Positions 1,078 through 47,713 of a stretch of 47,713 nucleotides of DNA are shown one piece after another. The first letter of the stretch is position 1, and each line of letters starts with the position of its first letter. The notes beneath the pieces are model-generated. The model was not told the DNA's origin. It saw only the letters and a list, made by a program, of their open reading frames with translations, and searched no databases. The stretch is from a virus (Duplodnaviria > Heunggongvirae > Uroviricota > Caudoviricetes): the IMG/VR virus record IMGVR_UViG_2541047774_000010. One strand, written 5' to 3'. The translations under genes and the position numbers were made by a program.

Positions 1078-2313
1078 ATGGCGCTGTCTGATGCGTGGTT
1101 GCGTTCAGTCGTTGGAAAGGAACGTGATAAGGTTTTGGTTAAATCCGATCGTGATGGTCTGTCTGTCAGAGTATCACCGAAAGGTCGCGTAGTGTTCCAA
1201 TATCGTTATCAATGGGCAGGGAAAGGTGAGCGCCTTGATATCGGAACTTACCCGGCAACTGGATTAAAAGAGGCCAGAGAAGAAGTTATCCGTCTCCGTG
1301 GTGAACTCGAGTCAAACCGCAATCCACGATTAGTCAAGCAGGCTGAAAAACGAAAAGCTACTGAAGCCATGACGGTAGAGTCTGTGATCCGTGCCTGGTA
1401 TGAAGCATATTGTGTAAAAAATAAAAAAGGTTCTGAACAGATACTCCGCTCGTTTGAGCTGCACCTGTTCTCTAAAATCGGGAATATCCCTCACGATGCA
1501 GCTACATTGCATGATTGGTTAGAAGTCCTGGAGCCTCTTAGCACCAAGACTCCAGCAATAGTAGACCGATTGCTAATTAACGCAAAGCAGGCTCATGTCT
1601 GGGCGTATAAGAGAAAGCTCATTGAAACTCGCCCACTGTCGGATATCACGGGTAAAGATATGGATATCCGTAAAGGTCAGAAAAAACGGTTTCTGACACA
1701 TGATGAAATTAACATCCTTTATGCTGCGATCGATGGTTCTCGAATGGTTCCTAAATACCGAGCCTTCATTAAACTATTGCTGCATTTTGGTTGCCGTAGT
1801 TCAGAGCTAATTACTGCTAGGGTGGATGATTTTGATTTCATAAATAAGGTATGGACTGTACCACCAGAACGACATAAGACTGGGGACATAACAGGCGAAC
1901 CGCTAAAGCGGCCCATTATTGAACCGGTTGAAGAGCTTATAAAATACGTTATCTCTATGAACAACGGTTCCGATATGCTTTTTACTAAGGAAGGAAGCAG
2001 GGAGCCAGTTGGTCGGACATCATTGCAGTCGCTGCCTTACAATTTAATGCAGTTCGCATGGCGACGTTTGGGGTATCAATTTCCTCATTGGTCTCTTCAT
2101 GATTTGAGACGAACAGCACGAACAAACTTTTCTGATCTTACTGCTCCTCATATTGCTGAAATAATGCTTGGTCATAAACTGCCAGGTGTATGGCAAGTTT
2201 ATGATAAGAGCGATTATCTAGAAGAACAGCGTAAAGCTTACTGGGCATGGTGGGAGAGGGTTGAATCGATCGTTACTTGTACTGACTTAATCTCCAACGG
2301 ACAGTTTGCGTAG
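1078..2313 (+). CDS. int: Phage tyrosine integrase (P4/CP4-57 type, N-terminal arm-binding domain)
   Basis: 411-aa ORF; N-terminal LSVRVSPKGRVVFQYRYQWAGKGERLDIGTYP is typical of the DUF4102 arm-binding domain; C-terminal HDLRRTARTNF catalytic region; position immediately inside the attL junction. Confidence 0.93.
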   Translation: MALSDAWLRSVVGKERDKVLVKSDRDGLSVRVSPKGRVVFQYRYQWAGKGERLDIGTYPATGLKEAREEVIRLRGELESNRNPRLVKQAEKRKATEAMTVESVIRAWYEAYCVKNKKGSEQILRSFELHLFSKIGNIPHDAATLHDWLEVLEPLSTKTPAIVDRLLINAKQAHVWAYKRKLIETRPLSDITGKDMDIRKGQKKRFLTHDEINILYAAIDGSRMVPKYRAFIKLLLHFGCRSSELITARVDDFDFINKVWTVPPERHKTGDITGEPLKRPIIEPVEELIKYVISMNNGSDMLFTKEGSREPVGRTSLQSLPYNLMQFAWRRLGYQFPHWSLHDLRRTARTNFSDLTAPHIAEIMLGHKLPGVWQVYDKSDYLEEQRKAYWAWWERVESIVTCTDLISNGQFA

Positions 2314-2471
2314 CCAGAGCGTAATCATATCTGCCAGTCCGCTGCGGATACCTTGTGTACTGGGTTTTTAGCCAGACTACGTTAACCGGTAGCTTCAGTA
2401 TTTGGGGTGTCGGCAGGAGTTTGATGGTTTATTGGGTTACTGTGGGACTAAGGATGTAGGGATGCCAATCG

Positions 2472-3605
2472 ATGAATTATGAAAAATATCATAGCACAAA
2501 CAGAAGCAAGGGTTTGCGAACCTTCTGCTACTTAATTTATTATGTGCAGGTGATTTTTAATGTGATGAAGTGTTTTATGACTCGCGGAAACTTTGATTTT
2601 ATAAACTCTAACGTGGTTTTCTCAGAAGCCGATAAGTCATTGTGGATTGATCTCATTAACACCGATTGTATTTGGTATGATATGATAATTAATCCTCCTG
2701 ATGATATAAGAACAAATAAGATAATAAAGAACTATCTCAGAATTATGGAAAAATATACGAGGGAAAGCTGTGAAAAGAGATTTATTTATTTCTTAGGTTC
2801 AAGAAAAAAAGTGAGGTTTTCAACCAAGAAACAGCCTAGGTATAACCCATTCACAAAAAATATAGTATTCACTCTGTTGATTGGCAAAGAAGAGCGAAAG
2901 CTTCGGATAAAATATTCCTTTTGCACGTTTACGCAGAATGGGGTAGTGAAGGTAACTCCAAATGTTAGAGTAACTGAGAAGTTTCTCTACATTGAATATG
3001 AAAATGGCAATTTATGTGTGATGTCAGTTCATGATTTCGTAAACGGACATTATATTGATTTAGGAATTCATACAGAAGTGCATTACGTAGGATATACACG
3101 TCATCCGCATCGGCGCCCTGTTGATTTTATTCACCGTGGCTTATCAAAGATGCTGTATAGCGTTTCAAATGACGATAATGATTTTTTTGTTTGTTTTAGT
3201 ATATTTAATCCAAGGATTATATCTCTGAATAATAAATGTAATGTGGTCTTTAATATTTCAAATTCTCTACTGGATGAAATTGATGTTGATAATGAGGGGA
3301 GAATTATTGAAAACTGCTTAATACGTTACTTTGATCCTAAGCTTCAAGATGATGACAAGGAAAGTAAAAGGTCAGATTTAAATAAAATGTTTATGGACCT
3401 GGTGGAAAATAAAAAAATTAAAAAAATATACGTTAATTTTCAATATGAAAGGAATAATGAGTATTTCTGCTTTTACTCTAAAGTTGTTCCGCCGAAATTT
3501 CATCATTTCTTTGTGTTGGATTTTTCTGATGGCAAGATAAATATTGATAGAGACCAGGATATGATGACTCAGATGGCATTGTGCATGGGGTATTATAATT
3601 ATTAA
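2472..3605 (+). CDS. Hypothetical protein, AT-rich cargo gene of unknown function (start may be internal, near 2562-2577)
   Basis: 377-aa ORF in visibly AT-rich DNA (not quantified) unlike flanking phage genes; Lys/Asn/Ile/Tyr/Phe-rich; no family recognised; possible N-terminal hydrophobic stretch CYLIYYVQVIFNV; AGGGA 10 nt upstream of ATG 2472. Confidence 0.6.
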   Translation: MNYEKYHSTNRSKGLRTFCYLIYYVQVIFNVMKCFMTRGNFDFINSNVVFSEADKSLWIDLINTDCIWYDMIINPPDDIRTNKIIKNYLRIMEKYTRESCEKRFIYFLGSRKKVRFSTKKQPRYNPFTKNIVFTLLIGKEERKLRIKYSFCTFTQNGVVKVTPNVRVTEKFLYIEYENGNLCVMSVHDFVNGHYIDLGIHTEVHYVGYTRHPHRRPVDFIHRGLSKMLYSVSNDDNDFFVCFSIFNPRIISLNNKCNVVFNISNSLLDEIDVDNEGRIIENCLIRYFDPKLQDDDKESKRSDLNKMFMDLVENKKIKKIYVNFQYERNNEYFCFYSKVVPPKFHHFFVLDFSDGKINIDRDQDMMTQMALCMGYYNY

Positions 3606-3814
3606 TATTTCGCCTGATGCCAACTCAAAATCTTTTTTGTCGCATCCATTGTGGATTAATATTCAGAGGTAAGGGGTATCTGCGGAATTTATATTTTGCA
3701 GGATGAGCATACAATACATGATATAACATCTGTTTTTGGCACAGAGCATATAGTCAGATTATGTTTAGTTCTGTGCCATAGATGGATATTATCTCACCTC
3801 TTGGCTAACTCTCA

Positions 3815-4009
3815 TTACTCAATAACTCCAGCAAATCTGTATATTTTGCGTGATGCCCATTTATTTGGGCAGGATTTAATATCAGGATCTGGAAAATCTG
3901 GCCTGTATTTCTGGCCTGTCCTCCTGTTTACGCTGTTCCAGCGAAGCACCGTCGATATTGAAACGCCACAGAATTCGGCGACTTGTTTTGTTGTCATTAA
4001 GTTGCTCAT
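3815..4009 (-). CDS. AlpA/excisionase-family HTH DNA-binding protein (putative Xis or regulator)
   Basis: 64-aa ORF with strong RBS (GGAGGGG); TKQVAEFCGVSISTVLRW helix-turn-helix followed by YRPDFPDPDIK...KIYRF, resembling the AlpA/Xis pattern. Confidence 0.5.
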   Translation of the reverse strand: MSNLMTTKQVAEFCGVSISTVLRWNSVNRRTGQKYRPDFPDPDIKSCPNKWASRKIYRFAGVIE

Positions 4010-4043: not shown

Positions 4044-4580
4044 TCATGCGCATGTGCGTAACTCCGATAACTCGTTAAAGCGTTCCATAAACATCCCGTA
4101 GGCATGGCCTGGCGACAGTGGAATAACTTTGAACATCTCTGTGGCAGAGATGCCTTCCAGTACTGGCCAGAAAGAGCCATCATCAAGCCCGAGATCGCGG
4201 CGTTCGGTTGCCAGCATGATGAGATCGGCATATTTCACGGGTGTACTCATAACCGGGGGTAACCCGTATTTCTCACGGATTACTGTGTCTATTTTTTCTT
4301 CCATCCGTTTATAGTCAGGAAGAAAGCGTTTCAGTGGTGCGGGGATGTCCTGGCAATACGCTTCTGTTGCATCATGCATTAACGCTTCAAAAGCAAATTC
4401 CTGCGGTACCAGCTGGCTGCAAAGCACCGCATGTTGGGCGACGCTGTAGAAGTGTGAAAGATGACCGGCAAAGCGACAGATATTTGAAAGGGAAACCGCG
4501 ATATCGTTAATATCGATGTCGTCTTTATTTATCCTGTCATAATAAAAATGCTTCCCGGAAAAAGTTTTAATAAATGACAT
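4044..4580 (-). CDS. yfdR: HD-domain phosphohydrolase, YfdR-like
   Basis: 178 aa from MSFIKTF with RBS GGAGAA; H...HD motif (SVAQHA...ALMHDATEAY); length and sequence resemble CPS-53 YfdR as recalled. Confidence 0.75.
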   Translation of the reverse strand: MSFIKTFSGKHFYYDRINKDDIDINDIAVSLSNICRFAGHLSHFYSVAQHAVLCSQLVPQEFAFEALMHDATEAYCQDIPAPLKRFLPDYKRMEEKIDTVIREKYGLPPVMSTPVKYADLIMLATERRDLGLDDGSFWPVLEGISATEMFKVIPLSPGHAYGMFMERFNELSELRTCA

Positions 4581-4707
4581 TTTGTTCTCCACGTATATGC
4601 GTTGCACCGTGCTGAATTCTGGTAAAAGGAAGCCCTCACCATCTGGCGATTATTGGGTAAATTATGTTGACATAAATGCCCCCGCAGGGGCATTTGCAGT
4701 AATGAAA

Positions 4708-5532
4708 TCAGGCGGTGAAAGTACCAATAAAGGTTTCTACTTTGCTGTCTTTGAATTTCTCAACAAGCAGATCACGAAATTCGTTAGCCATTTCTTCCTG
4801 CACCGCTTCCAGCTGAATAATGCGCAGAACCAGTACAGGACGATCGCCAGTGATAATGCTGAGGCGTAATTTAAACGGACGTTCTTTCAGACCTTCAAAC
4901 GGAACGCATTTAAATTCAAATGCCACTGGCATAATGTCTTTGGTCTTCGCTTCGACAGACTCCATCAGGGAGCGTTTGCCGCTGAAGTCATTATCTTCAA
5001 AATCAGCGGTCTGGTTCGCTTCAATTGTGATTTTACGGATCGCCGCAGCCGCTTTGGTTGCCTGAATGGCGTCACCATTAGCATCAAAGCCCACAAGGTA
5101 GTCGGCCCAGTCTTCAATCCATTCTGCCAGTGACTTCTGGGAGTTACGCTCGCCGTTAACAGACAACAGGGCAGAGAACGGTGCTGTCTTTTTCAGTTTG
5201 AGAGTGGCGGTGTTATCTGCGTGACCTGGTTCATCAATAGTACCCAGGTTAAGCACACTGACTGCTCGCATATTATCGGCATCGATAAAGCAGCGGGTGC
5301 CTTCATCTGCAAGATCTTTAGAATAACGGGTAAAGTCATCGATGCTGGCAGTGGAAAGCGCACCACGGAAACGGAAGCGATTTAAATTAAATTTTTCCAG
5401 ATCATGAATGCGGAAATTCTCAGGCAATGCCACAGCATCGGCACCAATCTTACTGATAATTTCATTAACACCCTGAGCAGAAATAAGGGCATGGATTTGA
5501 TTAATTGCGGTTGCGTCTAAGTTCTGAGACAT
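4708..5532 (-). CDS. yfdQ: DUF2303-family protein, YfdQ-like
   Basis: 274-aa ORF; length and sequence resemble CPS-53 YfdQ as recalled; same gene order as yfdP-yfdQ-yfdR. Confidence 0.75.
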
Positions 5533-5597
5533 AATAAGTCCTCACTATATAAAGATATTCAGTGATGAGATAAATAATCGGTTAATTAAGAACGATA

Positions 5598-5960
5598 TTA
5601 ATGACCTGCTGCGCGGAGTTTTCCGTCAGGTTCACCGGCAAGAGTCAGTAATTGTCCCTGGTCTTCCTGCAGAATAGTCAGGCGACCACCGCGATTGACA
5701 TACATCGGCGTTTCGGTGGTGTCTTCTTCGGAAATTTTCCCGCGGTTAGTCGGGCGAACATATGAGAGTTTGTGTTTGATTTTCACACGGTTCTCATCAA
5801 ATGGTTCGATTTCCAGGTTGAGTGAGACCTTACCTTTGGTTTTCGTGTTCATCACACCTGAAGCGACTTCACTGAGAACTGCGCCGATTTTGGTTTCAAA
5901 TACGCCGCCGTCCAGCTCCCCGATAAATGCCTGCACATCAGTACTGCGTTCGCTAGCCAT
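5598..5960 (-). CDS. yfdP: YfdP-like hypothetical protein
   Basis: 120 aa from MASERST with AGGAG 8 nt upstream; the track ORF extends further 5' from a TTG; position and size as for CPS-53 yfdP. Confidence 0.65.
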   Translation of the reverse strand: MASERSTDVQAFIGELDGGVFETKIGAVLSEVASGVMNTKTKGKVSLNLEIEPFDENRVKIKHKLSYVRPTNRGKISEEDTTETPMYVNRGGRLTILQEDQGQLLTLAGEPDGKLRAAGH

Positions 5961-6682: not shown

Positions 6683-7375
6683 TTAATTGTGTCGCTTAAG
6701 GGTTTGTGACTGGCTGATTAAGACCTTTCCAAAGACCATAAACCGGTGTTCATTTTCGCTGGTAATTCCCCATTCACGGTAAATCTGGTTATCAGAAATC
6801 ACCAGTAGTTTGTCAGGTATCATTTGCAGTCGTTTGACATAAATTTTATCATCAAAACCAAATACATAGATACCATCTCCATCAAACTGATTGATACTGA
6901 CATCAACGAAGATGAGATCTCCTGGCTCAATGGTTGGACACATACTGTCCCCACGAACGTTGATTACTTTAATGTGATTTGCTGGCCGTCCGCCAAACAT
7001 CGATACAGCATTATCAGTTCTGTATTCAATGGCATGAATCACATCAATGACATCACCGCCCTGGATAAGGCCATTTCCCGCACTGGCACTGATATCCAGC
7101 ATTTCAATACGGAATACATCCTTCACCTGCGCAACATCCTCACTAATACTGTTTTTACATACAGTATTACTTTTGAAGTCTGAGGTAAAGAGATCAGCAA
7201 TATCAACACCTAAGCTCCTGGCAATATTACTCAGGGCTTGTTCAGTGAATTGTTTCTGCTTACCTGTTTCCAGGCGCGAGATATTTGCCGCATCCACTCC
7301 TATTGCTTCAGCGAGATCGGCGATTTTCATGTTCTTCGCTTGGCGAAGTTGTCTGACTCGATTTCCTATGTTCAT
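6683..7375 (-). CDS. cI: CI-like prophage repressor (XRE HTH plus S24 LexA-type peptidase domain)
   Basis: 230 aa; N-terminal HTH (VRQLRQAKNMKIADLAEAIGVDAANISRLETG); Ala-Gly cleavage site (SASAG); C-terminal GDSMCPTIEPGDLIFVD with the Lys of the catalytic dyad; divergent from cro. Confidence 0.93.
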   Translation of the reverse strand: MNIGNRVRQLRQAKNMKIADLAEAIGVDAANISRLETGKQKQFTEQALSNIARSLGVDIADLFTSDFKSNTVCKNSISEDVAQVKDVFRIEMLDISASAGNGLIQGGDVIDVIHAIEYRTDNAVSMFGGRPANHIKVINVRGDSMCPTIEPGDLIFVDVSINQFDGDGIYVFGFDDKIYVKRLQMIPDKLLVISDNQIYREWGITSENEHRFMVFGKVLISQSQTLKRHN

Positions 7376-7395
7376 GCGTTTATTACATTTCTTTA

Positions 7396-7458
7396 TTGCG
7401 CGTTAAGCAAATCAACTTGCGCAAAATATTTGCGTGAAATAATATGCTCATCACGCAA
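7396..7458. promoter_or_regulatory. OR operator/promoter region between cI and cro
   Basis: Inverted repeats TTGCGC-N17-GCGCAA (7396-7424) and TTGCGTGA-N13-TCACGCAA (7430-7458); rightward promoter candidate TTGCGC (7417-7422), 17-nt spacer, TAATAT (7440-7445), then cro RBS GGAGG. Confidence 0.6.
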
Positions 7459-7472
7459 TATGTGGAGGTTAT

Positions 7473-7733
7473 ATGCAATCACCATTACGGAATGTGCGTA
7501 AAGCGCACGGATTTACTTTGCAGCATGTTGCTGCTGGCGTTCAGGTCAATCCAGCGACGCTGAGTCGTATTGAAAGACTGGAACAAATTCCATCTATCGA
7601 GCTTGCAGAACGTCTGGCCAATTTTTTTAAGGGTGAAATCAGCGAAATGCAGATTCTTTATCCGGCACGTTTTCAATCTAGCCAAAACCAGAATGGGTTT
7701 AAACCACAGGAACAGGAGATAAGCCGTGGGTAA
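7473..7733 (+). CDS. cro: Cro-like HTH repressor
   Basis: 86 aa; XRE-type HTH (LQHVAAGVQVNPATLSRIER); divergent from cI across the operator region. Confidence 0.85.
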   Translation: MQSPLRNVRKAHGFTLQHVAAGVQVNPATLSRIERLEQIPSIELAERLANFFKGEISEMQILYPARFQSSQNQNGFKPQEQEISRG

Positions 7734-8277
7734 GCATCACTGGAAAGTGGAAAAACAGCCTGAGTGGTACGTGAAAGCTGTCAGAAAAACTATCGCGGCG
7801 TTGCCGGGGGGTTACGCTGAAGCTGCTGAGTGGCTGGATGTAACAGAGAACGCTTTATTCAACCGCCTTCGTGCAGATGGCGATCAGATTTTCCCGCTGG
7901 GATGGGCAATGATTTTACAGCGCGCTGCTGGCACTCACTACATTGCGGATGCTGTCGCACAGTCTGCTGGTGGGGTGTTTGTATCGCTTCCTGAAATTGA
8001 GGAAGTAGAGAACGCCGATATAAACCAGCGCCTGCTGGAAGTCATCGAACAAATCGGGAGTTACTCAAAGCAGATTCGTTCGGCAATCGAAGATGGGGTA
8101 GTGGAGCCACACGAGCAGACAGCAATTAATGATGAGTTGTATCTGTCGATTTCGAAGCTCCAGGAGCATGCGGCACTGGTCTACAAAATTTTCTGCGCTC
8201 CAGAAAAGAGTGACGCCCGCGAGTGTGCAGCTCCGGGCGTCGTGGCGTTTTGTGTCTGTGGAGAAACTAACGCATGA
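7726..8277 (+). CDS. Early regulatory protein in the CII position (YdaT/CII-like); GTG start
   Basis: 183-aa ORF beginning at a GTG with AGGAG 8 nt upstream, overlapping the cro stop; the call rests mainly on position. Confidence 0.45.
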   Translation: MGKHHWKVEKQPEWYVKAVRKTIAALPGGYAEAAEWLDVTENALFNRLRADGDQIFPLGWAMILQRAAGTHYIADAVAQSAGGVFVSLPEIEEVENADINQRLLEVIEQIGSYSKQIRSAIEDGVVEPHEQTAINDELYLSISKLQEHAALVYKIFCAPEKSDARECAAPGVVAFCVCGETNA

Positions 8278-8879: not shown

Positions 8880-9425
8880 ATGGCTACGATCCCAACCCTC
8901 ACTCAACCTGAAATTGCCATCGTTGATGGTCAGGTTGTTACTTCATCCCTGGCTGTTGCCAACTTCTTCTCCAAACGTCATGACGATGTACTGAAAAAGA
9001 TCCGCACGCTTGAATGCTCAGCATCATTCACTGCCCGCAATTTTTCGGTGAGTGATTACACTGATTGCACAGGTCGCAAACTTCATTGCTACCAAATCAC
9101 ACGCGATGGTTTTGCGTTTCTTGCTATGGGTTTCACGGGTAAACGTGCTGCCCAGTTCAAAGAGGCATATATCAATGCCTTTAACCAGATGGAGAAACAG
9201 CTTTCAAAGCCCGCTGTACCGAGCGACGTTGCACATAACGCCAGCGTTCTCTGTTCCTACATTTCATCAATTCATCAGGTCTGGCTGCAGCAGCTTTATC
9301 CTATGTTGGCAAAAGCCGAATCTCCGCTGGCTGTTAGCTTATATGATTATATTAATGATGCTTCGGCGCTGGCCTGCCTCATAAATTTGTCGCTGAACCC
9401 TTCAGAGGTAAGGGGGCGCAAATGA
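8880..9425 (+). CDS. rha: Rha-family phage regulatory protein (antirepressor-like)
   Basis: 181 aa from MATIPTLTQPEIAIVDGQVVTSS with RBS AAGAGG; motif GFAFLAMGFTGKRAAQFKEAYINAFNQME is typical of Phage_pRha. Confidence 0.8.
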   Translation: MATIPTLTQPEIAIVDGQVVTSSLAVANFFSKRHDDVLKKIRTLECSASFTARNFSVSDYTDCTGRKLHCYQITRDGFAFLAMGFTGKRAAQFKEAYINAFNQMEKQLSKPAVPSDVAHNASVLCSYISSIHQVWLQQLYPMLAKAESPLAVSLYDYINDASALACLINLSLNPSEVRGRK

Positions 9426-9646
9426 TCCGGAATATTTTCAAACGTTTTACCAATCAGACTTTCCGTTGTCCTCGTCCGGGTCAGTGGTACACCACGCCTG
9501 CAGGGCATGTTCTACGTGTTAGCCTGGTTGACCGTGAATGTCAGAAGGTGGTTTGTGAACCGCTGGGCCGTAATTACCGCGTCAGTATGCCGCTTATAGC
9601 CTTTTGCTCCGGAAAAAACATGAAGCATCTCGGAGGTGCAGCATGA
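9422..9646 (+). CDS. Hypothetical protein
   Basis: 74-aa ORF translationally coupled to rha (ATGA overlap) with RBS AGGGGG; no family recognised. Confidence 0.4.
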   Translation: MIRNIFKRFTNQTFRCPRPGQWYTTPAGHVLRVSLVDRECQKVVCEPLGRNYRVSMPLIAFCSGKNMKHLGGAA

Positions 9647-10461
9647 GTATGGAGCTGATGGTTAAAGCGATGAAAATTCGAGTGGGTAATCCATTGCGAA
9701 AACTGGTTCTGATCAAGCTGGCTGATAATGCCAGCGATCAGGGTGAGTGCTGGCCCAGCTACCAGCATATTGCTGACCAGTGCGAGATTAGCAAACGTTC
9801 TGTGATGAATCATATTGCGGCCCTTTGTGATTCCGGGCTGGTAAAAAAAGTCACCCGGAAAAGTGAAAAAGGTAACTCAAGTAATATCTATCTCCTTCAT
9901 CTGGATGGTGCAGGAGATTCACTAGGGGGTAGTGCAAATAATTCACTATCTGGTGCAGCAAATTCACCAGGTAGTGCAGGAGTTGCACCAGGGGGTGGTG
10001 CAGGAGATTCACCCAGAACCAGTCACTCTTTTGAACCAGTCAAAGAACCAGTCAATGAACCAATAGCTGTTGGTGCATCTGCTGATGAGTCTGTGCGAGT
10101 TCGTTCAAACCGACCGGAATACTCTCCGGAGTTTGAGCAGGCATGGCTGGCATACCCCAAACGTGCTGGTGGCAATTCAAAATCTGCAGCCTTCAAAGCC
10201 TGGAAAGCCCGTTTGAATGAGGGGGTAAAACCCGAAACCATGCTGGAAGGTGTGAAACGCTACGCGGGCTGGGTATCTGCGATGGGTAACAGCGGCACAC
10301 AATTTGTGAAACAGGCTGTCACGTTCTTTGGTCCGGATCGTCATTTCGAAGAATCCTGGGAAGTTCCTGCGGTATCTGCAGCCAGACGCGAGGACCCGTA
10401 CTTCAAAGCCAGTTACGACAACGTGGACTACAGCCAGATCCCGGCAGGATTCAGGGGGTAA
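9643..10461 (+). CDS. O: Replication initiator, lambda O-like (N-terminal HTH, iteron-encoded linker, C-terminal domain)
   Basis: Start MSMELMV with RBS GGAGGTG; N-terminal HTH (LIKLADNASDQGECWPSYQHIADQCEISKRSVMNHIAAL); Gly/Ser/Ala linker encoded by the iterons; C-terminal EFEQAWLAYPKR...AFKAWK resembles the lambda O C-terminus. Confidence 0.7.
   Translation: MSMELMVKAMKIRVGNPLRKLVLIKLADNASDQGECWPSYQHIADQCEISKRSVMNHIAALCDSGLVKKVTRKSEKGNSSNIYLLHLDGAGDSLGGSANNSLSGAANSPGSAGVAPGGGAGDSPRTSHSFEPVKEPVNEPIAVGASADESVRVRSNRPEYSPEFEQAWLAYPKRAGGNSKSAAFKAWKARLNEGVKPETMLEGVKRYAGWVSAMGNSGTQFVKQAVTFFGPDRHFEESWEVPAVSAARREDPYFKASYDNVDYSQIPAGFRG
9907..10068 (+). repeat. Putative origin of replication: five ~20-bp iterons plus three 12-bp tandem repeats inside the O-like gene
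   Basis: Five direct repeats of consensus GGTGCAGGAGATTCAC starting near 9907, 9928, 9952, 9970 and 9994; then GAACCAGTCAAA, GAACCAGTCAAT, GAACCAATAGCT at 10033-10068. Confidence 0.55.
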
Positions 10462-10463
10462 TC

Positions 10464-10952
10464 ATGAGTCTTTTGAATGAAGTTCAGAAATTCATTGAAG
10501 CCCATCCGGGGTGTACTTCCGGAGACATTGCAGATGCTTTTGCAGGTTACTCACGGCAGCGCGTTCTGCAGTCAGCAAGCAAGTTACGTCAGAGTGGGCG
10601 TGTGGCTCACCGTTGTGAAGGAGATACACGCAGACATTTCCCGCGCCTGACTGAGAGAGCGCAGGAGCCGGAACCACAACCAGTTCGTGAAACCAGACCT
10701 GTGCGCAATTTCTATGTCGGCACTAACGATCCCCGGGTAATTTTGTGCCTGACCCGCCAGGCTGAAGAACTGGAGTCCAGGGGCTTATACCGTCGTGCTG
10801 CAACCGTGTGGATGGCGGCATTCCGTGAAAGCCACTCCCAGTCAGAACGAAACAATTTTCTGGCGCGCCGTGAGCGGTGCTTACGGAAAAGCAGCAAGCG
10901 CGCTGTATCGGGTGATGAGTGGTATCTGTCAGGGAATTACGTGTGGGCTTAA
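10464..10952 (+). CDS. Hypothetical protein with C-terminal PerC-like motif
   Basis: 162 aa; C-terminal AEELESRGLYRRAATVWMAAF...SERNNFLARRERC resembles the PerC/Pch regulator signature (GLYRRAA) as recalled. Confidence 0.45.
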   Translation: MSLLNEVQKFIEAHPGCTSGDIADAFAGYSRQRVLQSASKLRQSGRVAHRCEGDTRRHFPRLTERAQEPEPQPVRETRPVRNFYVGTNDPRVILCLTRQAEELESRGLYRRAATVWMAAFRESHSQSERNNFLARRERCLRKSSKRAVSGDEWYLSGNYVWA

Positions 10953-11278
10953 TGACGACGTTAACTCAATGCCAGCAGCAGGTGCTGGATATGCTGATTT
11001 CTTATCAGAAAGAACGTGGTTTCCCGCCAACCAATCAGGAGGTGGCAGCCATGCTGGGATACCGTTCGGTGAATGCAGCGGTGGAGCATCTTCGCGCACT
11101 GGAGAAAAAAGGCGTCATCACGATAAAGCGTGGCGTGGCCCGGGGTATCACGCTTCATACCACAGTGAAGGACGACGACAGCGAGGCAGCCGGGATTATC
11201 CGCGCACTGCTTGCCGGTGAGGAAAACGCCAGACTGCGTGCAGCCCACTGGTTACATGAGAGGGGCCTGAAAGTATGA
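10952..11278 (+). CDS. LexA DNA-binding-domain-like protein lacking a peptidase domain
   Basis: Start MTTLTQCQQQV (TAATG coupling to the upstream gene); LTQCQQQVLDMLISYQKERGFPPTNQEVAAMLGYRSVNAAVEHLRALEKKGVI resembles the LexA N-terminal winged helix; no S24 domain follows. Confidence 0.55.
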   Translation: MTTLTQCQQQVLDMLISYQKERGFPPTNQEVAAMLGYRSVNAAVEHLRALEKKGVITIKRGVARGITLHTTVKDDDSEAAGIIRALLAGEENARLRAAHWLHERGLKV

Positions 11279-11664: not shown

Positions 11665-11683
11665 TTAAGAGGAGAAACGAAGT

Positions 11684-14853: not shown

Positions 14854-14930
14854 CTCCCAACTGGAGCTGATATTTCGTTTTATCGATCGTGCGCTGGCAA
14901 TTGGCGTACTGGCGTAAGTGGAGAACGAGC

Positions 14931-31388: not shown

Positions 31389-31398
31389 GGAGGTGGTA

Positions 31399-32142: not shown

Positions 32143-32162
32143 CAGGACGATACTCATCATTT

Positions 32163-32186: not shown

Positions 32187-32202
32187 GCAGGTGGAGAACA
32201 TG

Positions 32203-32589: not shown

Positions 32590-32597
32590 CGCGGGAA

Positions 32598-36293: not shown

Positions 36294-36302
36294 GAGTCTC
36301 TG

Positions 36303-37001: not shown

Positions 37002-37005
37002 ACCC

Positions 37006-37749
37006 ATGACACAGACAGAATCAGCGATTCTGGCGCACGCCCGGCGATGTGCGCCAGCGGAGTCGTGCGGCTTCGTGGTAAGCACGCCGGAGGGGGAAAG
37101 ATATTTCCCCTGCGTGAATATCTCCGGTGAGCCGGAGGCGTATTTCCGTATGTCGCCGGAAGACTGGCTGCAGGCAGAAATGCAGGGTGAGGTGGTGGCG
37201 CTGGTCCACAGCCACCCCGGTGGTCTGCCCTGGCTGAGTGAGGCCGACCGGCGGCTGCAGGTGCAGAGTGATTTGCCGTGGTGGCTGGTCTGCCGGGGGA
37301 CGATTCATAAGTTCCGCTGTGTGCCGCATCTCACCGGGCGGCGCTTTGAGCACGGGGTGACGGACTGTTACACGCTGTTCCGGGATGCTTATCATCTGGC
37401 GGGGATTGAGATGCCGGATTTTCATCGCGAGGATGACTGGTGGCGTAACGGTCAGAATCTCTATCTGGATAATATGGAGGCAACGGGGCTGTATCAGGTG
37501 CCGTTGTCAGCGGCCCAGCCGGGCGATGTGCTGCTGTGCTGTTTTGGTTCATCGGTGCCGAATCATGCCGCCATTTACTGCGGCGACGGCGAGCTGTTGC
37601 ACCATATTCCTGAACAACTGAGCAAACGAGAGAGGTATACCGACAAATGGCAGCGACGCACACACTCCCTCTGGCGTCACCGGGCATGGCACGCATCTGC
37701 CTTTACGGGGATTTACAACGATTTGGCCGCCGCATCGACCTTCGAGTGA
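37006..37749 (+). CDS. K: Tail assembly protein K (JAB/MPN plus NlpC/P60-like)
   Basis: Start MTQTESAILAHARRCAPAESCGFVVS; HSHPGG metal-binding motif; conserved lambda position. Confidence 0.88.
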   Translation: MTQTESAILAHARRCAPAESCGFVVSTPEGERYFPCVNISGEPEAYFRMSPEDWLQAEMQGEVVALVHSHPGGLPWLSEADRRLQVQSDLPWWLVCRGTIHKFRCVPHLTGRRFEHGVTDCYTLFRDAYHLAGIEMPDFHREDDWWRNGQNLYLDNMEATGLYQVPLSAAQPGDVLLCCFGSSVPNHAAIYCGDGELLHHIPEQLSKRERYTDKWQRRTHSLWRHRAWHASAFTGIYNDLAAASTFE

Positions 37750-38294
37750 AAACGGGGTCCGAAGCCATCCGGGCGCTGGCCATGCAGATCCCGGCGTTTC
37801 GTCAGAAACTGAGCGACGGCTGGTATCAGGTACGCATTGCCGGGCGTGATGCTGGTGAAACCGAATTGTCTGCCCGTCTTAATGAGCCGCTGGCAAATGG
37901 TGCCGTGATCCACATCGTGCCGCGTCTGGTGGGAGCTAAAAGTGGCGGTGTGTTTCAGGTGGTGCTTGGGGCGGCGCTGATGGCGGTGGCATGGTGGAAC
38001 CCTGTGGGCTGGCTGGGTGCCGCGGCTGTATCGGGCATGTATGCGGCAGGGGCCAGTATGGTCCTGGGCGGAGTGGCGCAGATGCTGGCACCGAAAGCCC
38101 GGACGCCCACAGCGACCAGCACGGATAACGGCAAACAGAACACCTATTTTTCTTCGCTAGATAATATGGTTGCACAGGGTAATTCGCTGCCGGTGCTGTA
38201 TGGCGAAATGCGCGTGGGGTCCCGGGTGGTATCTCAGGAGATCAGCACGGCAGATGAAGGTGATGGTGGTCAGGTTGTGGTGATTGGTCGCTGA
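37647..38294 (+). CDS. I: Tail assembly protein I
   Basis: 215 aa overlapping the end of K; ubiquitin-like N-terminus and Gly/Ala-rich hydrophobic middle, as in lambda I. Confidence 0.85.
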   Translation: MAATHTLPLASPGMARICLYGDLQRFGRRIDLRVKTGSEAIRALAMQIPAFRQKLSDGWYQVRIAGRDAGETELSARLNEPLANGAVIHIVPRLVGAKSGGVFQVVLGAALMAVAWWNPVGWLGAAAVSGMYAAGASMVLGGVAQMLAPKARTPTATSTDNGKQNTYFSSLDNMVAQGNSLPVLYGEMRVGSRVVSQEISTADEGDGGQVVVIGR

Positions 38295-38316
38295 TGAAAA
38301 ACGTTTTATGTGAAAC

Positions 38317-38340
38317 CGCCTCCGGGCGGTTTTGTCGTTT
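38317..38340 (+). terminator. Hairpin between I and J (possible attenuator)
   Basis: CCGCC-TCCG-GGCGG hairpin followed by TTTTGTCGTTT. Confidence 0.35.
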
Positions 38341-38351
38341 ATGGAGCGTGA

Positions 38352-41753
<3,402 letters not shown>

Positions 41754-41819: not shown

Positions 41820-42419
41820 ATGCGTAAACTTTATGCCACCATTTTGTCCGCAGCCATCTGTCTGGCCGTATCCGGTGCGCCTGCATGGGCGTCTGAACAT
41901 CAGTCCACGCTGAGCGCGGGCTATCTTCATGCCTCGACGAACGTTTCCGGCAGCGATGATCTGAACGGGATTAACGTGAAATACCGTTATGAGTTTACGG
42001 ACACACTGGGGCTGGTGACGTCATTCAGCTATGCAGGAGACAAGAATCGCCAGCTTACCCGTTACAGCGATACCCGCTGGCATGAAGATTCAGTGCGTAA
42101 CCGCTGGTTCAGCGTGATGGCGGGGCCGTCTGTACGCGTGAATGAATGGTTCAGCGCGTATGCGATGGCGGGTGTGGCTTACAGCCGTGTGTCGACTTTC
42201 TCCGGGGATTATCTCCGCGTAACTGACAACAAGGGGAAAACGCACGATGTGCTGACCGGAAGTGATGACGGTCGCCACAGCAACACGTCTCTGGCGTGGG
42301 GGGCTGGCGTGCAGTTTAACCCGACCGAATCCGTGGCCATTGATATTGCTTATGAAGGCTCCGGCAGTGGTGACTGGCGCACTGACGGTTTCATCGTGGG
42401 TGTCGGTTATAAATTCTGA
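41820..42419 (+). CDS. lom: Lom outer membrane protein (Ail/Lom family moron)
   Basis: 199 aa; signal peptide [24 protein letters not shown]; matches lambda Lom as recalled; flanked by its own terminators. Confidence 0.9.
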
Positions 42420-42445
42420 TTAGCCAGGTAACACAGTGTTATGAC

Positions 42446-42472
42446 AGCCCGCCGGTTCAGGCGGGCTTTTTT
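42446..42472 (+). terminator. Intrinsic terminator after lom
   Basis: AGCCCGCC-GGTTCA-GGCGGGCT hairpin followed by T6. Confidence 0.7.
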
Positions 42473-42483
42473 GTGGGGTGAAT

Positions 42484-45400
42484 ATGGCAGTAAAGATTTC
42501 AGGTGTACTGAAAGACGGCACAGGAAAACCGGTACAGAACTGCACAATCCAGCTGAAAGCAAAACGTAACAGTACCACGGTGGTGGTGAACACGCTGGCC
42601 TCAGAAAATCCGGATGAAGCCGGGCGTTACAGTATGGACGTTGAGTACGGTCAGTACAGCGTTATTCTGTTGGTGGAGGGATTCCCGCCGTCACATGCCG
42701 GGACCATCACCGTGTATGAAGATTCTCAACCCGGTACGCTGAATGATTTTCTCGGTGCCATGACGGAGGATGATACCCGTCCGGAGGCACTGCGACGTTT
42801 TGAACTGATGGTGGAAGAGGTGGCGCGTAACGCGTCCGCGGTGGCACAGAACACAGCAGCCGCGAAGAAGTCAGCCAGCAATGCCAGCACATCAGCCCGT
42901 GAGGCGGCAACCCATGCGACTGATGCTGCAGGCTCAGCACGCGCAGCCAGCACGTCAGCCGGACAGGCCGCGTCATCGGCTCAGTCAGCGTCTTCCAGCG
43001 CAGGAACGGCATCAGCAAAGGCCACTGAAGCATCAAAAAGTGCTGCCGCTGCAGAGTCCTCAAAAAGCGCGGCGGCTACCAGTGCCGGTGCGGCGAAAAC
43101 GTCAGAAACGAATGCGGCAGCGTCACAACAATCAGCAGCCACTTCTGCATCCACCGCGACCACGAAAGCGTCAGAAGCAGCCACTTCAGCACGGGATGCG
43201 TCGGCTTCAAAAGAGGCGGCAAAATCATCAGAAACGAACGCAGCCTCGAGCGCCAGCAGCGCAGCTTCCTCGGCAACGGCGGCAGGAAATTCCGCGAAGG
43301 CGGCAAAAACGTCCGAGACGAACGCCAGGTCTTCTGAGACGGCAGCGGGACAGAGCGCCTCAGCTGCGGCAGGCTCAAAAACAGCGGCTGCGTCGTCTGC
43401 CAGTGCCGCGTCAACAAGTGCCGGGCAGGCCTCAGTCAGTGCCACCGCCGCCGGAAAATCGGCAGAAAGCGCCGCATCATCCGCTTCAACAGCCACAACG
43501 AAGGCTGGCGAAGCCACTGAGCAGGCCACGGCAGCAGCGAGGTCAGCTTCCGCAGCGAAGACATCCGAAACGAACGCGAAAGCGTCGGAAACCCGTGCAG
43601 AATCCTCAAAAACGGCAGCGGCATCGTCCGCCAGTTCGGCGGCGTCATCGGCCTCATCGGCGTCTGCTTCAAAAGATGAGGCGACCAGACAGGCGTCAGC
43701 AGCGAAGGGCAGCGCCACGACGGCATCCACGAAGGCGACAGAGGCTGCTGGTAGTGCGACGGCAGCAGCTCAGAGCAAAAGTACGGCGGAATCTGCAGCA
43801 ACGCGCGCTGAGACAGCGGCAAAACGGGCAGAGGATATTGCATCCGCCGTGGCGCTTGAGGATGCGAGCACGACGAAAAAGGGGATAGTACAGCTCAGCA
43901 GTGCGACCAACAGTACGTCTGAAACGCTGGCGGCAACGCCAAAGGCAGTAAAATCAGCCTATGACAATGCAGAGAAACGTCTGCAGAAAGACCAGAACGG
44001 CGCTGATATACCCGATAAGGGACGCTTCCTGAACAACATTAACGCGGTCAGTAAAACAGACTTTGCTGATAAGCGTGGTATGCGTTATGTGCGGGTTAAC
44101 GCTCCTGCAGGTGCAACATCTGGAAAATATTACCCTGTTGTTGTTATGCGTTCTGCTGGCTCAGTAAGCGAACTGGCATCAAGGGTCATTATCACCACGG
44201 CAACGCGAACCGCAGGCGATCCGATGAATAACTGCGAGTTTAACGGATTTGTTATGCCTGGTGGCTGGACTGACAGGGGGCGTTATGCTTATGGAATGTT
44301 CTGGCAATATCAAAACAATGAACGAGCCATCCACTCAATAATGATGAGTAATAAGGGCGATGATTTGCGCTCTGTGTTCTATGTTGATGGCGCTGCTTTC
44401 CCTGTTTTTGCGTTTATCGAAGATGGCCTGTCAATATCCGCACCTGGTGCTGATCTCGTTGTTAATGATACGACCTATAAGTTTGGGGCAACAAATCCAG
44501 CGACTGAATGTATCGCGGCGGACGTTATCCTTGATTTTAAGAGTGGGCGTGGTTTTTATGAGTCTCATTCGTTAATCGTTAACGATAACTTGTCGTGCAA
44601 AAAACTTTTTGCCACAGACGAAATTGTAGCGCGTGGTGGTAATCAGATTCGAATGATAGGTGGGGAGTATGGTGCATTATGGCGTAATGATGGCGCTAAA
44701 ACTTACCTGCTGCTTACCAATCAAGGTGATGTTTATGGTGGCTGGAATACATTAAGACCGTTTGCTATTGATAACGCAACCGGCGAGCTGGTTATTGGAA
44801 CCAAACTGTCCGCAAGTCTGAACGGTAATGCATTAACAGCAACAAAGCTGCAAACGCCAAGACGGGTTTCTGGGGTTGAGTTTGATGGTTCCAAAGATAT
44901 TACTTTAACCGCCGCGCATGTGGCTGCTTTTGCCAGAAGAGCAACGGATACGTATGCCGATGCGGATGGGGGCGTTCCATGGAATGCCGAATCAGGCGCT
45001 TACAATGTCACCCGCTCTGGCGACAGCTATATTCTGGTTAACTTCTATACCGGAGTCGGAAGTTGCCGGACCCTGCAGATGAAGGCGCATTACAGAAATG
45101 GAGGTCTGTTCTACCGTTCCTCAAGAGATGGCTATGGTTTTGAGGAAGACTGGGCAGAAGTTTATACCTCGAAAAATCTTCCACCAGAAAGCTACCCAGT
45201 CGGCGCACCAATCCCGTGGCCATCAGATACCGTTCCGTCTGGTTATGCCCTGATGCAGGGGCAGACTTTTGACAAATCTGCATACCCGAAACTTGCAGCC
45301 GCTTATCCGTCAGGCGTGATCCCTGATATGCGTAGCTGGACGATTAAGGGCAAACCTGCCAGTGGTCGGGCCGTATTGTCTCAGGAACAGGACGGCATTA

Positions 45401-45837
45401 AATCGCACACCCACAGCGCCAGCGCATCCAGTACGGATTTGGGGACGAAAACCACATCGTCGTTTGATTACGGCACTAAATCCACGAATAACACCGGGGC
45501 GCATACGCACAGTGTGAGCGGTACAGCCGCAAGTGCCGGAAACCATACTCATAGTGTCACAGGCGCATCAGCAGTCAGCCAGTGGTCACAAAATGGGTCA
45601 GTACATAAGGTAGTGTCTGCGGCCAGTGTGAATACAAGTGCTGCAGGAGCGCACACTCATAGTGTTAGCGGCACAGCCGCATCTGCAGGTGCTCACGCAC
45701 ATACTGTCGGTATTGGTGCTCATACGCACTCTGTTGCGATTGGCTCACATGGACACACTATCACCGTTAACGCTGCTGGTAACGCGGAAAACACCGTCAA
45801 AAACATCGCATTTAACTACATTGTGAGGCTTGCATAA
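42484..45837 (+). CDS. stf: Side tail fibre protein Stf (repeat-rich shaft, HxH-repeat tip)
   Basis: Start [26 protein letters not shown] as in lambda Stf; long Ala/Ser/Thr repeat shaft; C-terminal run of HTHS/HAHT repeats typical of gp37-like tips. Confidence 0.9.
42840..43850 (+). repeat. Low-complexity Ala/Ser/Thr tandem repeat region inside stf
   Basis: Reiterated units such as AAKTSETNA and ASSAASS in GC-rich DNA; this region generates the spurious ORFs on both strands in the track. Confidence 0.75.
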
Positions 45838-46412
45838 TGGCATTCAGAATGAGTGAACAACCACGGACCATAAAAATTTATAATCTGCTGGCCGGAACTA
45901 ATGAATTTATTGGTGAAGGTGACGCATATATTCCGCCTCATACAGGTCTGCCAGCAAACAGTACCGATATTGCACCGCCAGATATTCCGGCAGGCTTCGT
46001 GGCTGTTTTCAACAGTGATGAGGCATCGTGGCATCTCGTTGAAGACCATCGGGGTAAAACGGTTTATGACGTAGCGTCAGGGGACGCGTTATTTATTTCT
46101 GAACTCGGTCCGTTACCGGAAAATGTTACCTGGTTATCGCCGGAAGGGGAGTTTCAGAAGTGGAACGGCACAGCCTGGGTGAAAGATGCAGAAGCAGAAA
46201 AACTGTTCCGGATCCGGGAGGCGGAAGAAACAAAAAACAGCCTGATGCAGGTAGCCAGTGAGCATATTGCGCCGCTTCAGGATGCTGCAGATCTGGAAAT
46301 TGCAACGGAGGAAGAAATCTCGTTGCTGGAAGCATGGAAAAAGTATCGGGTATTGCTGAACCGTGTTGATACGTCAACTGCACAGGATATTGAATGGCCA
46401 GCACTGCCGTAG
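45837..46412 (+). CDS. tfa: Tail fibre assembly protein Tfa
   Basis: 191 aa, translationally coupled to stf (TAATG); typical Tfa N-terminus ([36 protein letters not shown]). Confidence 0.85.
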
Positions 46413-46509
46413 GGTAAAACATATAAATTCTATAATTAGATGTATCTTTCCATTTACGGCAAGGAAGGGGGCTTGGAAGACGTAAAGCATCTCACACCAA
46501 GATTATTTT

Positions 46510-47100
46510 TTATATGTCAGGTGTCTGAAGTTTTGCTTTGGCTCTTAAAATGGTTTGCCGCGAGGTTTTGAATTCCCGGGCAATGGCACTTATACTTACA
46601 CCTGACTTAATCCGTTCGAATACCACCTGTTTCTGTTCTTCATTTAACACAGGTGGTCGACCAAAACGTTTCCCTGCGCCCCGGGCTCTTACTATCCCGG
46701 AATGAGTGCGTTCAAGTAAAAGGTCTCGTTCAAATTCAGCGACTGCTGAAATTACTTGCATCATCATTTTTCCTGTTGGACTGGTCAGGTCAATGCCCCC
46801 CAATGCTAAGCAATGCACTCTGATACCTGTTTCGGTCAGTTGTTCCACTGTTTTCCTGATATCCATTGCATTACAACCAAGGCGATCCAGTTTTGTCACA
46901 ATCAATTGATCACCACATTTCAGGCGAGCAAGCAACCGGTTAAAACCAGGACGCTCACTGGTTGCTGCTGAGCCGCTAATGTGTTCTTCGATTATTTGCT
47001 GAGGTTTGATTTTAAAACCTGCACTTTCGATTTCCCGGCGTTGATTTTCGGTGGTCTGATCCAGCGTTGATATCCGACAGTAAGCAAAAATTCGAGACAT
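46510..47100 (-). CDS. pin: Serine recombinase / DNA invertase, PinQ/PinR-like
   Basis: 196 aa; catalytic Ser in [10 protein letters not shown]-terminal HTH; matches the K-12 prophage invertases PinQ/PinR as recalled. Confidence 0.9.
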
Positions 47101-47479
47101 AGTGAGACTCTATACGAAATTGGTGTACATATCATAATGCATATCCAAAAATTATTTCGCTTATTATTGTACATATTTGTATGTATACGTTCGAAAATAA
47201 ACGAATTCGGATGCAGTCCCGTAATTTTGGTGTAACCAAAAATCGATTTTTTGAAAAATGGCTTTAACTCGGTTTGTTTTTCGAACTCCGGGCGGACTCG
47301 AGGAAGACGAATAATAGTGTTGTATGTTATTTCAACCAGATTTTAAGTTGTTTGGTCGTGGAAAAGTGGAGCAAAATGTTGTTAAAGTGGAAAAATGGTA
47401 AAAAAAGTAGGTTGTTGCGGAATAACGTAGTTGTTGATATTTTTTTAATGCATTGAAAAATTATTTTTCAGGGGGGGTA

Positions 47480-47713
47480 TTACACTTTACCATTTAAATT
47501 TTGGTTGTCTTTAAGAACTGATATCGCTGTTTGTAATAATTCTTTGTTATCCAGCCATGACTTTTTCTTTATGTTTCCTTCAATGTAATCAAGCAATGTT
47601 CTGGTATTGATAGGTCTTCCCTGTTTTGCTACTTCCACGACAGCATCTCCCAGGATAATTCTGACTTCAGGAAGCTGCGCAGGGAACCACTTTAGGGTGT
47701 CTTTTGATTTCAT
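47480..47713 (-). CDS. ydfK: Cold shock-induced small protein YdfK/YnaE-like
   Basis: 77 aa MKSKDTLKWFPAQLPEVRIILGDAVVEVAKQG matches YdfK/YnaE as recalled; the start codon is the last three bases of the window; long AT-rich leader upstream. Confidence 0.8.
   Translation of the reverse strand: MKSKDTLKWFPAQLPEVRIILGDAVVEVAKQGRPINTRTLLDYIEGNIKKKSWLDNKELLQTAISVLKDNQNLNGKV

Follow-up and report, generated by a model that had tools for sequence, protein, structure and literature searches.

Which phage is represented by a stretch of DNA whose genes recall several cryptic prophages of Escherichia coli K-12 and phage lambda at the same time? The question is raised by IMG/VR record IMGVR_UViG_2541047774_000010 (Duplodnaviria; Heunggongvirae; Uroviricota; Caudoviricetes), of which the whole analysed stretch of 47,713 nucleotides is called here the window. 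A sequence-only reading had taken it for a mosaic prophage joining Qin-like regulatory and lysis modules to a lambda-like virion module, possibly an intact-looking relative of cryptic prophage Qin that was already decaying. We conclude that the region is very probably the nearly complete genome of a temperate lambdoid siphovirus of the mEp460/cdtI lineage, carried as an E. coli prophage in prfC. Its identity, its boundaries, the relationships of its modules, the structure of its two insertion sequences (ISs) and the integrity of its open reading frames (ORFs) are established by the comparisons described below. All the types of gene named in that reading do occur. The mosaic as such stands, with Qin-like and CPS-53-like segments at 91-97% identity, but more than half of it is not explained by Qin, CPS-53 and lambda.

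The boundaries are precise. The window starts within yjjG (15-692) and is identical to the K-12 yjjG-prfC interval up to base 847, foreign DNA beginning at 848; the start given earlier, 1078, is the integrase start codon. The attachment core ATTATTTCTCACCC is found again at attR, the far end of the prophage, in both N51 and A3; the PhiR63_1 record likewise has it at its end, and Stx2c phage records label the identical 14 bp 'duplication due to insertion'. The integration point falls at about codon 22 of prfC. The right end lies outside the window, 1,138 bp further by comparison with N51, which continues through ynaM/ynfT, dinI, attR and prfC. The window holds about 46.9 kb of a prophage of about 48.0 kb inserted at the 5' end of prfC (48,004 bp in total and 45,304 bp minus both ISs, with the right end taken from N51); the IS-free copy of strain A3 measures 44,981 bp. 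At the right junction of N51 the phage supplies a diverged substitute for the prfC 5' end and the gene remains open. A replacement of this kind has been described for SXT elements. The label 'disrupted', under which a survey lists prfC among prophage targets (PMC3603311), is not supported by the replaced 5' end seen here. The original prfC promoter and first ~22 codons are left beside yjjG (window 783-851; N51 locus L002, 33790-33851), and the working prfC has a phage-encoded 5' end with different codons. Around the core, TTGTACAT/ATGTACAA motifs are repeated on both phage arms (window 1011-1040; L002, 33654-33773) and include a 22-nt near-repeat, TGTACATATG(C/A)TTGTACATAAT; these repeats are plausible candidates for arm-type integrase binding sites.

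The integrase carries Arm-DNA-bind_3 (PF13356, 60.3 bits), Phage_int_M (PF22022) and Phage_integrase (PF00589) domains. Identity to P4 Int is 25% and to IntS of CPS-53 23%, with no similarity to intQ; P4 Int was the best pairwise match (E = 1e-20) among eight integrases tested. Within the DUF4102-bearing IntSXT subgroup, the integrases of cdtI and SXT form a cluster that targets prfC, next to a P4 cluster that targets tRNA genes (Smyshlyaev et al., PMC8138268). Integration downstream of tRNA genes, the trait of the P4 cluster, is not what is seen here: the target is the prfC coding sequence, and the window holds no tRNA gene. The enzyme is assigned by its sequence to the SXT/cdtI cluster of the IntSXT subgroup, the precise label for what had been called a P4-type integrase, a name acceptable in the broad sense of DUF4102 architecture.

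Relatedness was measured as coverage of 44,182 prophage bases, ISs excluded, in alignments with K-12 Qin, CPS-53, DLP12, Rac, e14 and phage lambda. Qin covers 19.1% of the element (mean identity 92.9%), CPS-53 5.7% (96.5%), lambda 21.5% (86.4%) and Rac 12.9% (94.6%). Segments related to Qin, lambda and CPS-53 are present, as had been proposed, but jointly these three explain only 44% of the element. Phage mEp460 covers 71.1% (cos to J at 97.3% over 17,964 bp; yfdR to the DUF968 gene at 94-97%), PhiR63_1 62.6% (the left end through 10984 at 99.66%, the lysis region at 98.2%) and mEp460_ev081 60.8%; the union of the three reaches 96.2% at a threshold of at least 85% identity. By these alignments, the element is another recombinant within the PhiR63_1/mEp460 set of phages. 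Its gene order is lambdoid throughout (int-xis, leftward early genes, repressor/cro, replication, nin-type genes, Q, lysis, cos, head, tail, fibres), and it shares the long high-identity stretches of such phages, at 90.3% with lambda over 5.5 kb and at 94-99% with mEp460 and PhiR63_1 over tens of kb. Full-length alignment of the proteins of the head, the tail shaft and tail-tip assembly with those of phages reported viable gives 94-100% identity, TerS (86%), J (90%) and Stf being more diverged. Both lytic and lysogenic cycles have been confirmed for mEp460 (PMC9836094).

Each relative matches in some modules and departs in others. Phage mEp460 (NC_019716) shares the DUF1441 TerS, the ClpP-protease/capsid fusion, the gene order and a 95% identical Q; unlike the window, it has its own integrase, excisionase and attachment site, holin and lysozyme regions only ~88-89% identical, another distal stf and a dam-like methylase, and it lacks the cspF/cspB/cspI/gnsB morons and pin/ydfK. 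PhiR63_1 (PV340573), on which a literature search found no publication, matches the left end through gnsB at 97-99.7% save for Q (94.8%), with the same int, cargo, immunity and lysis genes, a pin-ydfK end at 99.4% and the prfC core at its record end; it differs in a true lambda-type head (Nu1, A, W, B, C/Nu3, D, E, FI, FII), in having the methylase and in being free of ISs. Phage cdtI (NC_009514) is an inducible lambdoid prophage of enteropathogenic E. coli, also at prfC. Its Int (98.5%) and Xis (93.8%) are like those of the window, as are TerL (88%) and the other head and tail-shaft proteins (94-100%), the yfdPQR genes and the dinI-att-int arrangement, whereas TerS is only 42% and J 83% identical; it carries cdtABC, cif and nleH-like cargo, another cargo gene beside int, and another repressor, Cro, Q and lysis cassette.

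The sequence-only reading described the virion genes as lambda-like from terminase to J. The gene order, the open ORFs and the tail tip bear this out, but the terminase and head are of another type. The head module comprises a DUF1441 TerS, a TerL of the 700-residue type, an adaptor, a lambda-family portal, the capsid protein, decoration and head-closure proteins. The capsid gene is a single fusion of ClpP protease and major capsid protein (NCBIfam NF045540), not separate C, Nu3, D and E. The head proteins are 98-100% identical to those of mEp460 over full length, except TerS (86%, 93-95% coverage). Identity to lambda is 25% for TerL (against A) and 23% for the portal (against B, in a partial match), with at most 25% for head counterparts, and no blastp match to lambda Nu1, C, Nu3, D, E, FI or FII was found among the window proteins. 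Packaging and head genes are, on this protein evidence, mEp460/cdtI-type and not lambda-type. The cos site had also been called lambda-like, a claim that failed: no match to lambda cosN GGGCGGCGACCT within 2 mismatches exists in the window. The record of cdtI starts with GGGCGGGAGCGTCGCGG, which is the window from 23254 onward, and ends with the bases that precede 23254 in the window; from this record layout we infer that cos likely lies at 23254.

In the tail, identity to lambda is graded: 50-55% for Z, U, V and M, 25-38% for G, T and H, and 77-98% for L, K, I and J. From the end of H through J (35826-41311) the DNA is 90.3% identical to lambda, and J scores 2340 bits with NCBIfam lambda_TipJ against a cut-off of 1950. 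Compared with mEp460, the tail-shaft proteins are 98-100% identical at full coverage and K, I and J 90-97%. Beyond J, Tfa is 95% identical to the lambda protein and the N-terminus of Stf 87%. Judged by these identities, only the tail tip (L-J), Tfa and parts of stf, with parts of lom at the DNA level, are closely lambda-like. Lambda (NC_001416) shares in addition the overall gene order, the lambda-family portal and a Q-family antiterminator; unlike lambda, the window has no similarity to Int, Xis, CI, Cro, O, P, S, R or Rz, and its proposed cosN differs at 4/12 positions.

The right arm follows the order terminase-J-lom-stf-tfa-pin-ydfK with open ORFs, so that the presence of lom and stf was correctly read. 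From the lom 3' end onward (42230-47713, 5.5 kb) the DNA is 94.5% identical to K-12 Rac, where the counterparts are lom, stfR, tfaR, pinR and ynaE, and Stf is 96% identical to StfR over its full length; Rac otherwise shows no similarity, lying at ttcA with recET and racR. The 3' end of stf with tfa, pin and ydfK (45161-47713) is ~93% identical to Qin, and pin has the same identity, 99.3%, to pinQ as to pinR. Describing pin/ydfK as Qin-like therefore holds as far as identity goes (93.6% for the tfa-pin-ydfK arm) but not as a distinction, since Rac is equally close (93.6%). A search for a segment that pin might invert gave no more than weak inverted repeats (71-83% complementary). Rfam also matches IS009 (221 bits) within the 3' portion of tfa (46180-46378).

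Table 1. Features of the prophage and its left junction, with window positions
Feature	Position	Strand	Basis or remark
Displaced original prfC 5' end	783..847	+	Ends in attL core ATTATTTCTCACCC; identical to K-12
attL core, 14 bp, ATTATTTCTCACCC	834-847		Last 14 host bases; first phage base is 848
Tyrosine integrase, DUF4102/Arm-DNA-bind_3 type	1078..2313	+	Pfam; 98.5% identical to phage cdtI Int
AT-rich cargo gene, 342 aa, function unknown	2577..3605	+	Between int and xis
Excisionase candidate, 64 aa	3815..4009	-	93.8% identical to cdtI excisionase gp34
yfdR-yfdQ-yfdP, leftward early genes	4044..5960	-	DNA 96.8% to CPS-53, 97.4% to mEp460
CI-like repressor, helix-turn-helix and S24 peptidase	6683-7375	-	Pfam; immunity region 6683..8277
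Cro-like helix-turn-helix protein	7473-7733	+	Pfam
CII-like YmfL	7726-8277	+	Pfam
'Rha' ORF as annotated, 383 aa	8274..9425	+	Holds isrK-like and C4-like RNA elements upstream of the Rha domain
Replication and nin-like genes	9422..12481	+	Pfam; 94-97% DNA identity to mEp460
DUF968 (ydfU-family) gene split by IS4	12489..14917	+	Break after nt 939/990; intact 990 nt in N51 and A3
IS4, 1,426 bp	13428..14853	-	13-bp duplication CTCCCAACTGGAG at 13415-13427 and 14854-14866
Late antiterminator Q (YdfT type)	14931..15683	+	Pfam Antiterm; 94% to K-12 Qin YdfT
Qin-type late region	16099..21626	.	cspF, cspB, ynfU, essQ to ybcW-like gene
IS3, 1,258 bp	21750..23007	-	AAT duplication; between ybcW-like gene (lysis/moron side) and cos
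Probable cohesive-end site GGGCGGGAGCGT	23254..23265	+	Matches lambda cosN at 8/12 positions
mEp460/cdtI-type packaging and head module	23440..30400	+	97.3% DNA identity to mEp460; Pfam, NCBIfam
Siphovirus tail genes Z, U, V, G, T, H, M, L, K, I, J	30412..41753	+	blastp against lambda
lom, side tail fibre stf, assembly protein tfa	41820..46412	+	Rac and lambda comparisons
pin serine invertase	46510-47100	-	Pfam Resolvase, HTH_7
ydfK	47480-47713	-	Prophage runs on past the window end

The part of the element closest to Qin is the late region. Its genes are cspF, cspB, ynfU, the holin gene essQ, a ydfR-family gene (183 aa), a small minus-strand ORF, the endolysin gene rrrQ, the spanin gene rzpQ, cspI, ynfQ, ynfN, gnsB and a ybcW-like gene. 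The earlier description of Q, csp, holin, lysozyme and gnsB as Qin-like was accurate: DNA identity to K-12 Qin is 94.7% over Q, cspF, cspB, ynfU and essQ (14854-18005) and 91.1% over rrrQ, rzpQ, cspI, ynfN and gnsB (18663-21261), and the module proteins (ydfT(Q)-cspF-cspB-essQ-rrrQ-rzpQ-cspI-gnsB) are 90-99% identical to those of Qin. Q itself is 35% identical to lambda Q. The region is 98.2% identical to PhiR63_1 and, from 17552 onward, 98.6% to the Qin of REL606. The ydfR-family gene, called 'incomplete' by PGAP, is a recognised full-length variant because phrog_2091 matched it over 183/183 residues. Rfam finds cspA-type thermoregulator leaders ahead of cspB and cspI (16451-16890, 19917-20322).

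Could the element then be the intact or ancestral form of K-12 Qin specifically? K-12 Qin shares Q, cspF/cspB, essQ, rrrQ, rzpQ, cspI, ynfN, gnsB, tfa, pin and ydfK at 91-99% identity (DNA from Q to gnsB at 91-95%, tfa-pin-ydfK at 93.6%), and the Qin-locus prophages of REL606 and PK8276 carry the lysis module with the same IS3 at 97.4-98.6%. However, no more than the 19.1% of the element given above matches K-12 Qin and only 40.7% of Qin is matched by the window; the integrase and the immunity genes are others, and the attachment site is prfC as opposed to ydfJ/rspB. Qin is defined by its location between ydfJ and rspB and by its intQ remnant, and this element lies between yjjG and prfC. Neither blastn nor tblastn found a match in the window to dicA, dicC, dicF, dicB, rem, relBE or hokD of Qin, Rfam found no DicF there, and the immunity region shows no blastn similarity to dicA/dicC. 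The gene named as a Qin-like ydfU does belong to the DUF968 family by Pfam, but its protein is only 55% identical to K-12 YdfU. K-12 Qin had been taken to have no morphogenesis genes, which is incorrect: it keeps nohA, stfQ and tfaQ, and its nohA region matches lambda cos-Nu1 at 98%, a packaging type other than the DUF1441/mEp460 type of the window. The right arm is equally Rac-like, and mEp460_ev081 is functionally closer to Qin, of which it covers 59.6% with 95.6% identity; it has already been published as a fuller functional relative of Qin (PMC10448788). The notion of an intact K-12 Qin is largely refuted, and we consider it very improbable.

A narrower kinship with Qin survives. In the Qin-locus prophage of REL606, IS3 occupies the same site in the same orientation (locus L016, 20061-21318) and internal J sequence (the counterpart of window 40531) follows directly on its right end, ~17.5 kb between cos and J being absent; this prophage and window 17552-23012 share 98.6% identity. 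The corresponding prophage of PK8276 (locus L017) has both IS3 junctions, after which come the same DUF1441 terS as in the window and a terL that breaks off after 1,522 nt and is fused there to the 3' part of J, and window 17552-25452 is 97.4% identical to it. Both variants share with the window the ydfR-fusion gene and IS3 at the identical site, terS-terL being found in PK8276 only, and both have lost most virion genes. On account of this shared lysis module and IS3, and of the deletions at the Qin locus, the late half of the window is the undeleted version of the REL606 and PK8276 variants. One ancestral IS3 could have moved between prfC and ydfJ prophages by homologous recombination, independent deletions following (IS3 to J in REL606; terL to J in PK8276), a history to which we would give slightly less than an even chance. 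It is also possible that the site is an insertion hotspot that was targeted independently.

The two ISs raise the question of decay. An IS4 element typically measures ~1,426 bp, encodes a 442-aa DDE transposase and leaves an 11-13-bp target duplication, and an IS3 element measures 1,258 bp with a frameshifted OrfAB and a 3-bp duplication. Both identifications are firm (NCBIfam transpos_IS4_1 at 303.9 bits; NCBIfam transpos_IS3 and 99.5% identity to K-12 IS3C), and the two insertions announced earlier are real, simple insertions, with clean target duplications and empty sites in relatives. IS3 is common to N51 and the Qin-locus prophages, its left junction occurring in 16 genomes; IS4 is unique to the window copy, and a search of 5,426 complete E. 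coli genomes did not turn up its junction. IS4 cuts the DUF968 gene 51 nt (the last 17 codons) before the stop and lies 77 bp upstream of Q. The G6 frameshift that had been proposed does not exist: none of the nine G6/C6 runs disrupts an ORF when each is checked for ORF continuity and compared with N51 and with the reading frame of lambda, and the only indel relative to N51 (G7 versus G6 at 47471-47477) is non-coding and follows closely on the 3' side of the ydfK stop. Every virion ORF has its full length, and the structural, lysis, integration and immunity ORFs are intact. What remains of the proposed decay is the two recent IS insertions, the only damage visible.

The near-identical copies in public genomes also bear on whether the mosaic could be an assembly artefact or an IS-mediated chimera of two prophages joined at IS3. 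The matches to PhiR63_1 and lambda break off precisely at the IS3 left end, and those to mEp460 take up on its right side, as such a joint would have it. The 3-bp duplication of IS3 is nevertheless intact and the IS-free copy of A3 runs uninterrupted through the site between the same flanks, which refutes IS3 as a recombination joint of two prophages. Over window 1-28000 the N51 chromosome differs by 11 substitutions only, outside a 1.44-kb insertion present in the window alone (IS4), and over 15000-47713 it is 99.78% identical. The N51 copy, from a cerebrospinal fluid isolate, is without IS4 only and that of A3 without either IS, each being otherwise the same prophage; the structure is therefore real and no assembly artefact. 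The left half is collinear over at least 80% in N51 and at least 20 other complete genomes, the right half in 1,093 genomes, and an artefact or chimera is exceedingly improbable.

Two further points concern these copies and their relatives. Of the 72 differences from N51 over 15000-47713, 55 cluster in 1.1 kb of J (39740-40853), as if recombination had patched the host-range region in prophages that are otherwise nearly the same. PhiR63_1, mEp460 and cdtI each have a dam-like methyltransferase gene (654 bp) between the PerC/yfdN and LexA-like genes, which the window, N51 and A3 lack; the alignments flanking the gap overlap by 33 bp (window 10952-10984), which suggests loss by deletion between short direct repeats. 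In E. coli K1 RS218, an ArcA-regulated 193-nt small RNA, sRNA-17, that affects meningitis models is reported to lie within a 'mEp460-type' prophage (PMC7719688).

The left arm had been called CPS-53-like, and it is so in yfdR-yfdQ-yfdP (96.8% DNA identity) and in yfdN (PerC; 95.6%); the YfdR, YfdQ and YfdP proteins are 95-100% identical to their counterparts, and yfdO of CPS-53 matches the 3' end of the replication gene. CPS-53 (KpLE1), alike in yfdP/Q/R and yfdN at 96-97%, differs in lying at argW with IntS, TorI and yfdGHI (gtr), of which gtr has no match in the window, and in lacking the immunity region found here. The cargo gene beside int matches phrog_7779 (function unknown) and has no match in Pfam, NCBIfam or PADLOC; its AlphaFold 2 model is confident, without a fold match in the PDB. 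The excisionase candidate has a weak HTH_17/MerR-type N-terminal helix-turn-helix and is unrelated to TorI; its ORF is unannotated in N51 and A3, and PhiR63_1 annotates an ORF on the opposite strand (3696-4061).

The immunity proteins are 98-100% identical to those of mEp460 and PhiR63_1. In the adjoining Rha ORF, Rfam recognises isrK at 8634-8710 (67.9 bits) and C4 antisense RNA at 8735-8822 (83.6 bits), both above the gathering score; a weak c4-a1b1 match is seen there as well (stretch 8621-8822). Pfam places Phage_ASH at residues 117-213, exactly the stretch of the RNA elements, and Phage_pRha at residues 223-308. The immunity RNA region of phage P4 gives the same Rfam matches, and its conceptual 'cI protein' the same Pfam match. 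Substitutions relative to cdtI at the three codon positions number 22/21/17 in the RNA stretch, with no third-position bias, and 32/23/65 in the Rha-domain part, which is biased. The Rha ORF is probably over-extended across an RNA-controlled antirepressor switch of the P1/P4/N15 type, and Pfam Phage_ASH may in part describe translated RNA genes. The replication and nin-like block that follows encodes a hypothetical protein, a replication protein (HTH_36/DnaD_N), PerC/YfdN, a LexA-DNA-binding-like protein, RusA and a KilA-N protein.

From these genes a life cycle can be proposed. The integrase would insert the phage at about codon 22 of prfC, the right end of the phage supplying the new 5' end of the gene. 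Lysogeny would be held by the CI-like S24-peptidase repressor with its Cro- and CII-like partners and the RNA-controlled Rha antirepressor. Lytic growth would proceed through the Qin-type Q antiterminator and then the holin/endolysin/spanin cassette, with cos-type packaging into a ClpP-protease/capsid-fusion head bearing a lambda-like tail tip and side fibres. Into this scheme IS4 would probably introduce a block, or a weakening, of read-through into Q and hence of late gene expression: a polar effect on Q is plausible because a terminator-like hairpin at the left end of IS4 (13432-13457) faces rightward transcription.

Whether the prophage is still fully inducible and makes infectious particles despite its ISs is doubtful. 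All structural, lysis, integration and immunity genes are open and no known essential gene is inactivated, IS3 being non-coding and IS4 costing only the end of the DUF968 protein. In lambda biology, Q-modified transcription is expected to pass through an element such as IS3, and by analogy such read-through would be expected here too. PhiR63_1, deposited as a complete phage genome, has early and lysis regions 98-99.7% identical. Yet IS4 and its hairpin part Q from the rightward early operon, no N-type antitermination system is recognised and the genome is enlarged to 48.0 kb; the IS4 allele, unique among the complete genomes searched, fits a recent and possibly non-transmissible change.

Several points weigh against the conclusion that this is a nearly complete temperate phage. 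The regulatory logic and the functional effect of the ISs are deduced from the genes, as is the life cycle. The right-hand 1.14 kb is known from N51 and lies outside the window. Neither an N-like antiterminator nor a helicase loader was identified in the window, and viable mEp460 has the same gene set. The polarity of IS4 is read from its position and a match to a consensus terminator, and Q may have another promoter. With both ISs the genome measures 48.0 kb, against 44.5-47.0 kb in mEp460 and cdtI, which may or may not exceed the capacity of the head.

Even so, a temperate siphovirus of the mEp460/cdtI lineage in prfC is an ordinary element of a well-understood kind; near-identical copies are public, and its modules are already known from described phages (mEp460, cdtI, PhiR63_1). 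Its importance beyond annotation is small. Annotation gains the replacement of a 'lambda-like head' by one of the mEp460/cdtI type, exact boundaries and a 14-bp core inside prfC. The shared IS3 site is a small, testable example of late-module exchange between prophages followed by loss of virion genes and, if the proposed history is true, would provide a stepwise and datable route by which Qin-type prophages become cryptic. The likeness to Qin, CPS-53, Rac and lambda reflects, as the alignments indicate, a shared pool of recombining lambdoid modules, and the K-12 elements are deletion remnants that keep fragments of modules whole in the window. The locus offers a concrete case in which the CPS-53, Qin and Rac remnants each retain pieces of modules that stand complete in one circulating phage type.

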